Source: a virus. From it: a stretch of 64,000 bases of DNA. Below are positions 25,677 to 47,338 of this stretch, piece after piece. Every line of letters begins with the position of its first letter. Within the stretch, counting starts at the first letter, position 1. The stretch lies in IMG/VR virus record IMGVR_UViG_3300028859_000013, positions 47,324 through 111,323 of that record. The stretch is one strand, 5' to 3'. The translations under genes and the position numbers were made by a program. A model generated the notes under the pieces. The model saw only the letters and a list, made by a program, of their open reading frames with translations. It was not told where the DNA came from and searched no databases.

Positions 25677-26027
25677 ATGAATATAATAAATTTTTTATTT
25701 TATAAATCAGAAAAAACTATGCACATAAATAGTACAGATATTGATAATTGTACTAGATATAAAGATAAATGGATCCAACCTTATACAGAAGTTATTAAAA
25801 ATAAAATAATTACTGATTCTAATAAAATGATAGATGAAGTGAATTTGAAATATAAAAGAAAAAATAAAAAAGAACTTATTATTGAAATAACTTTATGCTT
25901 AAATAGAATAGATAGAAACTATGATGATCACGGAATTAGTAATAAACAATATCAAGCAGAATTTGAGCATTTTATAAAATCAACAATACTAATATATAAA
26001 AATAACGTAATATATGAAAGTAGATAA
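25677..26027 (+). CDS. hypothetical protein
   Basis: 116 aa ORF after host-type promoter. Confidence 0.65.
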   Translation: MNIINFLFYKSEKTMHINSTDIDNCTRYKDKWIQPYTEVIKNKIITDSNKMIDEVNLKYKRKNKKELIIEITLCLNRIDRNYDDHGISNKQYQAEFEHFIKSTILIYKNNVIYESR

Positions 26028-26421
26028 ATTTAATGAGACATACGAAGAAATAATTCATATTGAAGGTAATGATGTATCAAATGATTCAGTACCAATAACA
26101 AATAATCGTGATATATTAACTTATATGGTTAATATTCAAACTGATGCATTTAAATCTCATAAATTAGTATTAACTAGTAATTTAATTGAACCTTTAACAA
26201 AAATTTTTGGTACTCAAAATAAAACAATGAGACTTGAGTTTATGACAAAGTTGTGGGTTTTAAAATTTAAAGATTTGACATTTAATGTTTATACAGCAAA
26301 GAATAGAGGAACATCTTATGAAGTTTGTGACTATTCATATGAAGATATTCGTACAGATAAATTATTAACAAAAAAAATTATAGAATTTTTAGATGAATTG
26401 TATAAATTAATAAACGAATAA
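26014..26421 (+). CDS. hypothetical protein
   Basis: 135 aa, MKVDKFNE start. Confidence 0.7.
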   Translation: MKVDKFNETYEEIIHIEGNDVSNDSVPITNNRDILTYMVNIQTDAFKSHKLVLTSNLIEPLTKIFGTQNKTMRLEFMTKLWVLKFKDLTFNVYTAKNRGTSYEVCDYSYEDIRTDKLLTKKIIEFLDELYKLINE

Positions 26422-26840: not shown

Positions 26841-26939
26841 ATGAACAACATTAGTAGAAATATCACAGCAGTCACAACAACAACTACCCCCGCAGGAGGC
26901 AGACCAGTCGTGTATTTGGGTGATAATAATCTAAGTTGA
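26841..26939 (+). CDS. putative attenuator leader peptide MNNISRNITAVTTTTTPAGGRPVVYLGDNNLS
   Basis: 32-aa ORF (not in ORF track) with Thr run, followed by terminator, preceding tRNA array. Confidence 0.75.
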   Translation: MNNISRNITAVTTTTTPAGGRPVVYLGDNNLS

Positions 26940-27010
26940 TATTTTTATAAAATATTTTAATAGTGTTAAAAACCCAAAGATGATTATTCAACTTTGGGTT
27001 TTTTCTTTTT
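26915..27010 (+). promoter_or_regulatory. attenuator: antiterminator plus intrinsic terminator
   Basis: terminator AAAAACCCAAAG(26968-79)/CTTTGGGTTTTT(26992-27003) plus U tract; TTTGGGT (26915-21, inside leader) can alternatively pair with ACCCAAA (26972-78). Confidence 0.7.
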
Positions 27011-27022
27011 AAATAATTAATT

Positions 27023-27100
27023 GGTCCTGTATTGGCAGAATTTCCTAAATTCTATGTGCATAATGGAATGAAAATGAGAGTTCAAATCTCTTCTGGACTA
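27023..27100 (+). tRNA. atypical tRNA-Arg(CCT)-like, D-arm absent, D-loop-like segment 3' of anticodon arm
   Basis: GGTCCTG/CTGGACT acceptor; AGAAT-TTCCTAA-ATTCT; GAGAG-TTCAAAT-CTCTT. Confidence 0.65.
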
Positions 27101-27110
27101 CAATAAACAT

Positions 27111-27171
27111 CGGGAGTATGTGGTAGTGTCTCGGGTACCGACACAAGAAAGTTCGACTCTTTCTCTTCCGA
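27111..27171 (+). tRNA. D-armless tRNA-Pro-like gene (CGG/GGG in a 9-nt loop)
   Basis: CGGGAGT/TCTTCCG-A acceptor (C1:G72, A73); GTGTC-TCGGGTACC-GACAC; GAAAG-TTCGACT-CTTTC. Confidence 0.5.
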
Positions 27172-27188
27172 CAAAGGTTGAATTAAAT

Positions 27189-27261
27189 ATGGATGTAGTT
27201 CAGTAGGTAGAATGCTTGGTTTGGGACCAAGTGGTCGGGATTTCGAGCATCCCCATCCATA
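27189..27261 (+). tRNA. tRNA-Pro(TGG)
   Basis: full cloverleaf, CTTGG-TTTGGGA-CCAAG; unusual A1:U72. Confidence 0.88.
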
Positions 27262-27272
27262 CATATAATAAT

Positions 27273-27349
27273 AGTCCTGTAATGGCATGGTTTTCTAAAC
27301 CATAAGTGCATAACGGATGTGAATGTGGGTTCGAATCCCATCAGGATTA
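27273..27349 (+). tRNA. atypical tRNA-Arg(TCT)-like, D-arm absent, D-loop-like hairpin 3' of anticodon arm
   Basis: AGTCCTG/CAGGATT; ATGGT-TTTCTAA-ACCAT; GTGGG-TTCGAAT-CCCAT. Confidence 0.7.
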
Positions 27350-27358
27350 CAAAAATAA

Positions 27359-27433
27359 GGGGGCTCATGTTCCAAGGCTCGGCGATGAATATTTGCAATA
27401 TTTGTGAGGTGAATCCGATTTTCACAGTCTCCA
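27359..27433 (+). tRNA. tRNA-Ala(TGC), atypical D and T loops
   Basis: GGGGGCT/AGTCTCC with G3:U70; GAATA-TTTGCAA-TATTT. Confidence 0.75.
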
Positions 27434-27467
27434 CTATTTTTTGTTGGGTTCAAAATGATTATAATTT

Positions 27468-27542
27468 GCAGATATAGTATAACGGCTAGTACATAACATT
27501 GCCAATGTTAAGATACCTTTTCGAGTAAGGTTATCTGCTCCA
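27468..27542 (+). tRNA. tRNA-Gly(GCC)
   Basis: cloverleaf, TAACA-TTGCCAA-TGTTA, U73, encoded CCA. Confidence 0.9.
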
Positions 27543-27638
27543 AGTATTTATGGACATTTTTTATTAATAAGTGAAAATAATAGTTCGTTTTTGAGTTTAT
27601 GCTCATCAATATTTTTATATATACAAATAAAAAGTTGT

Positions 27639-28808
27639 ATGGTAGAATATTGTAAATTTTGTGGTAAAGACATTAAGGATTTAAAGCCAACACAAAAAGG
27701 TCAGCATGTTGCAAATTGTAGCATGAATCCAAATATAAAAATAATTAAGGATAAAAGAGCATTATCAAAAATAGAAACACAGAGAGCAAAAAATCCAATA
27801 TTGAAAATTAAGTTGAGATGCTTAAATTGTAATGAGGAATTTGAAATTGATGTGATTGAAAGTTATTATAAACGTGGTAGGTATAAAAAATGTTGTTGCG
27901 AAAAATGTGCAAAGCAATATTCAACAAAAAATTATGATGACGATATATTAAAAAAAGATTTTTGTAAAGAATGTGGAGAAGAATTTTTAGTTAAAAATAG
28001 AACAAAAATAGGTATATCAACATGTACAAAATGTAGAAAATTAAAAAGAAATAGAGGCAAAAATATAAAAAATATTAATAAAAAACTTGGTGATAAAAAT
28101 ATTATAGAAAAAATATTAGTATGTAAATTTTGTGGTGACGAAAAATGTAAAAAACCAGAAGTGTGTTCAAAATTTAGACAAAAAAATAATGTTTATGAAA
28201 AATATTTAGGTTTTGATAGTAGTAAAAAAGGAAATAATGATGTGTATACTGAGTTTGATAGAATTATAAATGAATTAAAATTTGATTATTTTGATAAAGA
28301 ATTGTCTATTGTTGAAATAAGCAAAAAGTATAATATGAATTATAAATCTATGTATTTAATATTTAAAAAGAATAATATTGTTATTAGAACATTTTCTGAA
28401 GCTGTAATGAATTCTATTAAAAATGGAAAAATAAATTATAATAATATAGTGCAATATCCATATAAATCTGGAATGTATATAACATGGAAAGGTGATAACG
28501 TACATTATAGAAGCAATTATGAGAAAGAATATTATTCTATTTTGGATGATAAAAAAGTGAATTATGAAGTTGAAAGTTTAAGAATACAATATTATGATAC
28601 ACAAAAGAAAAAAATAAGAATTGCAATACCAGATATTTATATTAAAGAAATAAATGAAATTATTGAGATAAAAAGTAAATGGACTTTGAATGAAATAAAT
28701 ATGAAAGATAAAGTAAAATCATATAAAAAACTAGGATATAATGTTAGATTGATTGTTGGTGAAGGAAATAAGAATTTTTTTAAAAATACAATTGATATAA
28801 TATATTAA
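27639..28808 (+). CDS. Zn-finger plus TnsA-like PD-(D/E)XK endonuclease in tRNA array
   Basis: multiple CxxC; YRSNYE..PDIYI..IIEIKS; likely ATG start 27639. Confidence 0.75.
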   Translation: MVEYCKFCGKDIKDLKPTQKGQHVANCSMNPNIKIIKDKRALSKIETQRAKNPILKIKLRCLNCNEEFEIDVIESYYKRGRYKKCCCEKCAKQYSTKNYDDDILKKDFCKECGEEFLVKNRTKIGISTCTKCRKLKRNRGKNIKNINKKLGDKNIIEKILVCKFCGDEKCKKPEVCSKFRQKNNVYEKYLGFDSSKKGNNDVYTEFDRIINELKFDYFDKELSIVEISKKYNMNYKSMYLIFKKNNIVIRTFSEAVMNSIKNGKINYNNIVQYPYKSGMYITWKGDNVHYRSNYEKEYYSILDDKKVNYEVESLRIQYYDTQKKKIRIAIPDIYIKEINEIIEIKSKWTLNEINMKDKVKSYKKLGYNVRLIVGEGNKNFFKNTIDIIY

Positions 28809-28813
28809 AATAT

Positions 28814-28884
28814 GCAAAATGTAGCTTAACGGTAAAGTATCTGATTTCCAATCAGAAGACGGGGCTCAACACCCACATTTTGCT
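28814..28884 (+). tRNA. tRNA-Gly(TCC), atypical 8-bp acceptor and short T stem
   Basis: GCAAAATG/CATTTTGC; TCTGA-TTTCCAA-TCAGA; T loop CTCAACA. Confidence 0.75.
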
Positions 28885-28891
28885 CATAATC

Positions 28892-28964
28892 AGGACTTTA
28901 GCTCAGTTGGTAGAGCGCAACTATTACAAAGTTGATGTCATCGGTTCGATTCCGATAAGTCCTA
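28892..28964 (+). tRNA. tRNA-Val(TAC)
   Basis: cloverleaf, CAACT-ATTACAA-AGTTG. Confidence 0.92.
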
Positions 28965-28975
28965 CGAAAATAATT

Positions 28976-29046
28976 GCACTTATCGTATAATGATATTACT
29001 TTGGCGTTGTATACCAAAAATTTCGGTTTGATCCCGAATAGGTGCT
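28976..29046 (+). tRNA. tRNA-Thr(TGT), divergent
   Basis: GCACTTA/TAGGTGC; TTGGC-GTTGTAT-ACCAA; TTCGG-TTTGATC-CCGAA. Confidence 0.7.
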
Positions 29047-29090
29047 CAATAAAATAAACTTTTATTTTATTTTTTAATATATAAACATAT

Positions 29091-29163
29091 GCCATTATGA
29101 TGTAATGGATTAGCATTAAAACCTTCTAAGTTTTTCGTCAGCGTTCGAATCGCTGTAATGGTA
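29091..29163 (+). tRNA. tRNA-Arg(TCT)
   Basis: cloverleaf, AAAAC-CTTCTAA-GTTTT, D loop AATGGATT. Confidence 0.92.
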
Positions 29164-29164
29164 C

Positions 29165-30878: not shown

Positions 30879-31243
30879 TGGTGGAGATGTCGGCATACAA
30901 TAGCCGAGTCCAATATTGCCTTTCAGCATTTTCTACAAGTTTAGTTCATTTTTTCTAAAATAAACAAAAATACATAATTTTTAAATGATAATTATTAAAT
31001 TCATCAAACATTTTTACACCTTAAAATAGTTTGCTAACAAGGTTTCTGATTTTAGACCGATTAGGCTACTAAAACTTCATTACCAACAACAGCTTCAGAA
31101 ACTGCGAAAGTTGTATTAGAAGTTAAAATATGCGTATGTGCTTTGCCATTTAAATTTTACCCATTAATTTATTAATCGCTGATAGATAATGCGATACTTG
31201 CTGATAACCTTATTCTACATTACTGTCAAAATCGTTCATCCCC
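30879..31243 (-). ncRNA. ssrA: tmRNA
   Basis: 5' GGGGATG..TTTTGAC, 3' CATCTCC-A-CCA with G3:U70; internal tag ORF 31147-31061 GKAHTHILTSNTTFAVSEAVVGNEVLVA*. Confidence 0.88.
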
Positions 31244-47032: not shown

Positions 47033-47338
47033 TTAATAATAAACTTTTATTTTTTTAGATCCATTTTCAAAATTTTTATTCCAAACAATTCTTGTTTTAT
47101 TATCTTGAAAATCATCAAATTCAGTCCATGCAGTTTTATGCGTACCTTCATTATAACCATTCAAAGTAGATTTAATATAACCCCTTGCTTTTATTTCTAA
47201 TTTTTTATCCTCAGATTTAACTATCTTAAAATATGTTATTAGAGTAGTTGGGTTATCCTTTATATCTCTAATAATTATTTTATAATCTACATTTACATAT
47301 TTTCCTGTTCCTTCTAAAAATTCTTTGAAATTTTTCAT
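47033..47338 (-). CDS. CTS-like protein
   Basis: start moved to MKNFKEFLE. Confidence 0.7.
   Translation of the reverse strand: MKNFKEFLEGTGKYVNVDYKIIIRDIKDNPTTLITYFKIVKSEDKKLEIKARGYIKSTLNGYNEGTHKTAWTEFDDFQDNKTRIVWNKNFENGSKKIKVYY

Follow-up and report, generated by a model that had tools for sequence, protein, structure and literature searches.

Analysis of a tRNA cluster in a stretch of virus DNA of 64,000 nucleotides (nt) (positions 47,324 to 111,323 of IMG/VR record IMGVR_UViG_3300028859_000013; the whole stretch is called the window here) raised the question of whether two tRNA-Arg-like genes whose D-loop follows the anticodon arm, instead of preceding it, are working tRNAs. The two genes, copy 1 with the anticodon CCU and copy 2 with the anticodon UCU, were compared with an alignment of 89 distinct related sequences. 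The comparison indicates that both elements are probably functional tRNAs with a rewired D-stem fold, in which the D-stem encloses the anticodon arm. Selection acts on every tRNA feature of the family. The window adds two members to this family, one CCU and one UCU, from a peat giant phage.

Layout of the two genes

Direct reading of the sequence revealed the same layout in both genes (Table 1). Each copy has an anticodon stem of 5 base pairs (bp) with a standard 7-nt loop. The gap that separates the acceptor from the anticodon stem is 7 nt, filled by a linker beginning with U-A, and a self-contained D stem-loop is absent. The D-loop-like motif A14, A15, Y (pyrimidine), G18, G19, A20 lies 3' of the anticodon arm, inside an insert that precedes the T stem, and it shares A-A-Y-G-G-A with the D-loop of the ordinary tRNA-Arg(UCU) encoded at 29091-29164. 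Both copies combine an arginine anticodon with C35 and with an A directly after GG (A20). The anticodon and T stems differ between the copies by compensatory changes. The initial annotation had described the two-copy layout, the displaced motif with its likeness to the D-loop of tRNA-Arg(UCU), and the compensatory differences, all of which were borne out on the sequence.

An ARAGORN run on the window reported neither copy. The Rfam tRNA model (RF00005) matched copy 2 with 34.9 bits (gathering threshold, 29), with the D-arm deleted and 18 nt inserted in the variable region, and copy 1 was not reported by this model even at an E value of ≤10. A U-U mismatch at acceptor pair 6-67 (27028/27094 in copy 1; columns 6/86 of alignment A1, described below) was observed in 20 of the 89 members and seems to be a feature conserved in a subfamily, not damage.

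A family of relatives in phages

With the UCU copy as query, blastn matched two huge-phage assemblies and also a series of Streptomyces phages; in the latter, the relatives are unannotated and lie directly 3' of an annotated tRNA-Arg. Motif scans of IMG/VR yielded many more. A parser whose criteria were solely three ordinary stems and a short linker retained 89 distinct sequences (alignment A1) from viral contigs and from cultured phages (among them Felix O1, phi92-like coliphages, and Streptomyces phages). Arginine anticodons are present in 85 of the 89 members, and the Arg-type insert layout occurs with UCU, CCU, UCG, and ACG only. The remaining four members have the same layout with anticodons for Ile (UAU twice, GAU once) or Val (UAC once). 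Their D-stem base pairs differ from those of the Arg type, and they carry U at position 20. The existence of these Ile and Val versions indicates that the rewired architecture is not restricted to arginine.

A covariance model of the family (R1) gave 91.4 bits for copy 2 and 80.0 bits for copy 1, compared with ≤34 bits for ordinary tRNAs; both copies are in the R1 seed, so their scores follow by construction. The model also matched Salmonella phage Felix O1 at 25951-26029 with 56.8 bits. This gene is unannotated, is partly overlapped by an HNH coding sequence (CDS), and encodes CCA. An exact-pattern search of Felix O1 gave no match because its stem bases differ. A blastn search with the Felix O1 copy matched 263 cultured-phage records belonging to Felixounavirus, phi92-like, Klebsiella, jumbo coliphage, Serratia, and Streptomyces groups. 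In the matched GenBank records the gene is mostly without annotation, and in a few it is labeled "tRNA-OTHER" or CDS. ARAGORN reported 4 of 88 members, and these with wrong ends.

Scans of IMG/VR in which the insert was left unconstrained returned for the most part ordinary tRNAs in which the linker motif is matched by the D-loop, together with 10 new members that all share one insert type. A scan of prokaryote genomes with a loose pattern revealed at least three true members (L197, L251, and L267) among the 120 matches listed, all of them on contigs of metagenome-assembled genomes. No description of such tRNAs was found in the open full-text literature (subscription-only papers lay outside the search), and a 2020 review of noncanonical tRNAs mentions neither phages nor such a layout.

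Two further kinds of unusual tRNA-like genes were observed during these searches. In the 735-kb phage LR756501, a tRNA-Gly(UCC)-like gene (L001:1340-1420) adjoins a rewired tRNA-Arg, and its D region appears to be about 12 nt larger. A recurrent tRNA-like gene in IMG/VR (L361, L366, L388, L329, L333, L319, and L353) has a normal T arm and acceptor stem and an unusually long, differently organized 5' region. It was retrieved solely via the linker motif and may represent another nonstandard class of phage tRNA.

Covariation and the D-stem

In the cells of A1, standard pairs made up 96.8% of the acceptor stem, 93.0% of the anticodon stem, and 98.4% of the T stem (n = 89). Double changes were found at 19 of the 22 pairs, and the observed values were reached by none of 500 shuffles. 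The bases U8, A9, U13, A14, G19, G53, T54, U55, C56, A58, and C61 are invariant, and G18 is nearly so. The spacer after the anticodon stem measures 3 to 5 nt, usually 4, and the tail before the T stem measures 3 to 10 nt and ends in position 48.

Comparison of the linker with the insert revealed that the fourth and fifth linker bases pair with the bases two and three positions 5' of A14. Alignment columns 12-48 (U-A 72, C-G 17) and 13-47 (G-C 84, U-A 3, A-U 1, C-G 1) are each paired in 89 of 89 sequences, and these two core pairs comprise five pair combinations, with covariation. When the middle base of the triplet preceding the D-loop changes, the linker changes along with it. The variant haplotype of Felix O1 forms three pairs, C-U-C with G-A-G, and that of a second copy in LR745206 pairs C-C-C with G-G-G. 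Over 17 linker/insert haplotypes, pairing reached 100% in one register only, with 2 to 90% in slid registers. The association was not built in by the searches, since the scans that yielded the two main insert types placed no constraint on the linker. In copy 1, the core D-stem joins 27033-27034 with 27059-27060. In copy 2, 27282-27284 and 27309-27311 form A-U, U-A, and G-C, with 27283-27284 and 27309-27310 as the core.

Because the linker pairs with the bases preceding the D-loop in every member, a D-stem exists, and it encloses the anticodon arm. The initial annotation had stated that the genes have no D-arm, which these pairs contradict; its broader proposal of selected, topologically rearranged tRNA-Arg genes is upheld. 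The layout, which 89 distinct relatives have in common with strong covariation, lies well outside what chance would produce. In the family, the D-loop-like motif takes the form A-R-Y-G-G (R, purine), and a pyrimidine that matches base 15 precedes the T stem. This 15-48 pair (A1 columns 51/67) is A-U in 87 of the sequences, with G-C in the other 2, and is never mixed. A targeted scan for G15 variants yielded one true member (L190), which carries C48. The only other sequence with G15/C48 is the Ile member L160, so the covariation at 15-48 rests on two sequences.

Proposed architecture

Both genes would encode functional tRNA-Arg with a permuted core, of which the CCU copy would read AGG and the UCU copy AGA and AGG. 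The acceptor, anticodon, and T arms are ordinary, and the D-arm alone would be re-threaded. After U8-A9, the chain would run straight down as the 22-25 strand, pass through a 26-like base, and enter the anticodon stem (27-43). The spacer of 3 to 5 nt would replace 44-45 and lead into the 10-13 strand (G-C-A-U in the window), which would pair back to the linker. The D-loop A14 A15 Y G18 G19 A20 would come next, followed by a short tail ending in U48 and leading into the T stem. Relative to the cloverleaf, the backbone would have three swapped joins, with 9 leading to 22, 44 to 10, and 21 to the region of 46-48.

In the L-shape of an ordinary tRNA, position 9 neighbors position 22, and position 21 neighbors 46-48. 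In the stacked D/anticodon helix, the 39-43 and 10-13 strands already run in the same direction. Given this proximity and direction, the three joins could be swapped with all modules of the L-shape kept: the D-stem on the anticodon stem, the pairs U8-A14 and 15-48, and the docking of G18G19 on the T loop. The RNA would be expected to fold into an L-shape. G10 opposite C or U in the rewired variants and the Y11-R24 (pyrimidine-purine) pair of the rewired majority mirror ordinary tRNAs.

Arginine identity and genomic context

The identity elements of bacterial arginyl-tRNA synthetase (ArgRS) are A20, C35, U/G36, and A/G73. The Arg members have A at position 20 (a single G results from a misalignment by one column), and the four Ile and Val members all have U, in agreement with the earlier proposal that A20 marks arginine identity. 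The discriminator is mostly A or G in the family, and CCA directly follows it in 15 of 85 members, compared with 1/64 by chance. The rewired RNAs would be processed, charged by host ArgRS via A20, C35, and A/G73, and used for AGA and AGG codons. In the phage contig, AGA accounts for 79% and AGG for 7% of the arginine codons (together 86%).

Analysis of 77 loci of about 9 kb revealed that the members sit in tRNA clusters, in which the median number of other tRNAs per locus is 8. Of these loci, 13 include an ordinary tRNA that has the same anticodon; in the other 64 there is none in the flank examined. In Felix O1, the rewired gene is the sole UCU tRNA, the ordinary tRNA-Arg has the anticodon ACG, and the set reported by ARAGORN covers 19 amino acids. 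Clustering of the neighboring genes revealed HNH homing endonucleases, ThyX, NUDIX, and unknown proteins as the only recurrent neighbors, and no recurrent synthetase, nuclease, or repair enzyme was found within about 5 kb.

Four contig sets from peat and permafrost metatranscriptomes touch a 4-kb stretch of this region in pieces, with no whole tRNA covered. One contig of 149 nt corresponds to 26910-27058, that is, the upstream region and the first 36 nt of copy 1. Such contigs cannot reveal RNA ends and may include DNA carry-over, and they are evidence neither way on expression.

Weighing of the alternatives

Several observations weigh against a functional tRNA with a rewired D-stem. Only two D-stem positions are always paired, the flanking layers being paired in 51 and 16 of the 89 sequences, and at the 10-25 layer the majority has G opposite G. 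The majority haplotype also pairs to about 90% in two registers slid by 2, so the register rests on the variant haplotypes (17 sequences), which may descend from few events. RNAalifold returned the three ordinary helices only and neither the rebuilt D-stem nor an insert hairpin. Thermodynamic folding of single sequences likewise predicted neither of these two elements, and its energies were no better than those of shuffles (z-scores not significant). Finally, the window also encodes the ordinary tRNA-Arg(UCU), so the peat phage does not strictly depend on its rewired UCU copy.

The initial annotation had favored an arrangement without a D-stem, in which the insert forms its own three-pair hairpin at the position of the variable arm, with GG and A20 in the loop docking on the T loop. 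A three-base complement does lie 3' of the D-loop motif in about half of the family, both window copies included, and pairs 47-62 and 48-61 of such a hairpin are formed in 41 sequences each. However, these pairs are unpaired in 12 to 14 and gapped in 34 to 36 of the 89 sequences, and many members have no complement at all. In every member, moreover, the linker is the pairing partner of these three bases and covaries with them. The self-contained hairpin is therefore quite improbable. It is unlikely, too, that the genes encode tRNA mimics acting outside translation, whether as a regulatory RNA for the tRNA operon or as a decoy or sponge whose target would be a host nuclease directed at tRNA-Arg, a modification enzyme, or ArgRS. 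Such a role would agree with the odd architecture, with the ordinary tRNA-Arg(UCU) in the same window, and with the fact that host defenses directed at tRNA are common (e.g., PMC13096335 and PMC12851939). A mimic, however, would not need a perfect anticodon loop, four arginine anticodons, A20, an A or G discriminator, or the encoded CCA. A decoy is also disfavored because the rewired gene is the sole tRNA with its anticodon in the flanks of most of the phages, Felix O1 included, and the Ile and Val versions with U20 are more in keeping with a general architecture for tRNAs than with a decoy specific to Arg. Decayed or rearranged pseudogenes without function would explain why gene finders reject the sequences and why GenBank records leave them mostly unannotated or as tRNA-OTHER, but the layout is kept across phages of Enterobacteria and Actinobacteria and in uncultured giant phages, with hundreds of compensatory cells and invariant bases of the tertiary core. 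The covariation effectively refutes this explanation, which has a negligible probability.

Possible role of the rewiring

If the genes are functional tRNAs with a rewired D-stem, the rewiring could be an adaptive counterdefense, a tentative and rather doubtful idea, in which the surfaces seen by ArgRS, EF-Tu, and the ribosome are kept and the substrate of a nuclease, a continuous D-arm/variable loop, is removed. The nuclease could be a host enzyme directed at tRNA or the phage's own activity that degrades host tRNA. The dominant AGA and AGG codons would then remain readable during the destruction of ordinary tRNA-Arg. In view of the Ile and Val versions, this would be a general, naturally evolved alternative tRNA architecture, possibly an orthogonal one.

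A widespread natural family in which the strands are connected differently would show that more than one wiring can lead to the L-shape, and it offers a natural scaffold for the engineering of orthogonal tRNAs. Phage tRNA repertoires are systematically undercounted, as the only AGA/AGG reader of Felix O1 is unannotated. Members in cultured Escherichia coli and Salmonella phages make the role of unusual phage tRNAs directly testable.

Source of the window and its tRNA cluster

The IMG/VR virus record from which the window comes is 111 kb long and has a G+C content of 23%. CheckV estimated the completeness of the record at 16%, which indicates that it covers only a piece of a very large phage genome. 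The sequencing runs that contain the window DNA are peat metagenomes, and the window has weak DNA similarity to Lak-type and other huge phages.

The tRNA cluster spans 27023-29164 on the plus strand. ARAGORN reported tRNAs for Pro, Gly(GCC), Val, and Arg(UCU) in it and one for Met further along, and Rfam added Gly(UCC), Thr(UGU), a transfer-messenger RNA (tmRNA), and rewired copy 2. The UCU anticodon thus occurs in the peat phage in both the rewired and the cloverleaf architecture. The tRNA set of this phage is generally unorthodox. Between the rewired genes, a tRNA-like stretch of about 65 nt (27105-27175, plus strand) has good acceptor pairing, a standard T arm, no D-arm, and a middle hairpin with an odd 9-nt loop; it was reported by none of ARAGORN, Rfam, and model R1. 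The cluster also contains an open reading frame (ORF) of 405 amino acids, the 3' part of which has 65 to 71% DNA identity to Prevotella Lak megaphages. It may be a homing-endonuclease-like insertion, as are HNH genes in other phage tRNA clusters.

Table 1. Coordinates of the rewired genes, their parts, and other features (window positions unless a locus is named)
Feature	Position	Strand	Remarks
Copy 1, rewired tRNA-Arg(CCU) gene	27023-27100	+	78 nt; R1, 80.0 bits
Copy 1 acceptor	27023-27029 / 27093-27099	+	7 bp; read from sequence
Copy 1 linker	27030-27036	+	7 nt; U8, A9, then 22-25-like strand; A1 columns 8-15
Copy 1 26-like base	27036	+	Last linker base
Copy 1 anticodon arm	27037-27053	+	CCU at 27044-27046
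Copy 1 insert	27054-27075	+	22 nt; read from sequence
Copy 1 10-13-like strand	27058-27061	+	Core pairing bases, 27059-27060
Copy 1 D-loop-like A14 A15 U G18 G19 A20	27062-27067	+	Motif as in tRNA-Arg at 29091-29164
Copy 1 U48-like base	27075	+	Directly 5' of T stem; Levitt-type pairing with A15 (27063) proposed
Copy 1 T arm	27076-27092	+	Standard
Copy 1 discriminator A	27100	+	Read from sequence
Copy 2, rewired tRNA-Arg(UCU) gene	27273-27349	+	77 nt; R1, 91.4 bits
Copy 2 acceptor	27273-27279 / 27342-27348	+	7 bp; read from sequence
Copy 2 linker	27280-27286	+	7 nt; U8, A9, then 22-25-like strand
Copy 2 anticodon arm	27287-27303	+	UCU at 27294-27296
Copy 2 insert	27304-27324	+	21 nt; read from sequence
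Copy 2 10-13-like strand	27308-27311	+	Sequence reading and alignment A1
Copy 2 D-loop-like A14 A15 C G18 G19 A20	27312-27317	+	Sequence reading and alignment A1
Copy 2 U48-like base	27324	+	Before T stem; proposed partner of A15 (27313)
Copy 2 T arm	27325-27341	+	Standard
Copy 2 discriminator A	27349	+	Read from sequence
405-amino-acid ORF within tRNA cluster	27591-28808	+	Many CxxC pairs; no Pfam match
tRNA-Gly(UCC)	28815-28883	+	Rfam, 47.6 bits; not ARAGORN; T loop shortened, atypical
tRNA-Thr(UGU)	28976-29046	+	Rfam, 41.8 bits; not ARAGORN; C-A mismatch in anticodon stem
Ordinary cloverleaf tRNA-Arg(UCU)	29091-29164	+	ARAGORN; Rfam, 53.5 bits; comparator
tmRNA match	30879-31243	-	Rfam, 48.8 bits, barely above gathering score of 47
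Ile/Val rewired members (Ile GAU, UAU; Val UAC)	L008:2956-3032, L160:743-823, L060:5360-5436 (-), L174:10637-10713 (-)		

Comparison with known tRNA types

Reviews and recent experimental work describe all known bacterial and cytosolic tRNAs as cloverleaves in which the arm sizes alone vary (PMC7609411, PMC11551756). The rewired genes share with an ordinary class I tRNA-Arg (RF00005) the 7-bp acceptor stem, the 5-bp anticodon stem with its 7-nt loop (U33, C35, purine 37), the 5-bp T stem with a standard T loop, and U8, A14, A15/U48, G18G19, A20, and A/G73. In sequence, the D-loops are almost the same as well. In contrast to the ordinary tRNA-Arg, the 22-25-like strand lies 5' of the anticodon arm and the 10-13 strand with the D-loop lies 3' of it, so that the anticodon arm is enclosed by the rewired D-stem, which lacks its own loop.

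D-armless tRNAs have been reviewed for mitochondria, e.g., mitochondrial tRNA-Ser(AGY) (PMC7609411, PMC4013460), and a synthetic D-armless mini HisT has been described (PMC11551756). These molecules have no D-stem and no elbow contact of G18G19 and adopt a relaxed or Y shape, whereas the rewired genes keep the D-stem strand, the D-loop, G18G19, and 15-48, merely relocated. Because these elements are present, the rewired tRNAs are not of the mitochondrial D-armless type.

Class II tRNAs (Leu, Ser, bacterial Tyr, and Sec) and allo-tRNAs (PMC5389517) likewise have about 18 to 30 nt between the anticodon and T stems. The class II variable arm, however, is a self-paired hairpin beside a normal D-arm, whereas the rewired insert pairs with the 5' linker. 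The rewired tRNAs are not class II, since they have no conserved variable hairpin and also no normal D-arm.

The circularly permuted tRNA genes of Cyanidioschyzon merolae (PMC3728597) likewise depart from the cloverleaf in the order of their segments. In these genes, the 5' half comes after the 3' half, and the RNA becomes a normal cloverleaf again through processing (PMC3728597). The rewired tRNAs are not permuted at the gene level in this way because their ends are normal; their permutation is internal and, unlike that of C. merolae, would persist in the mature RNA.
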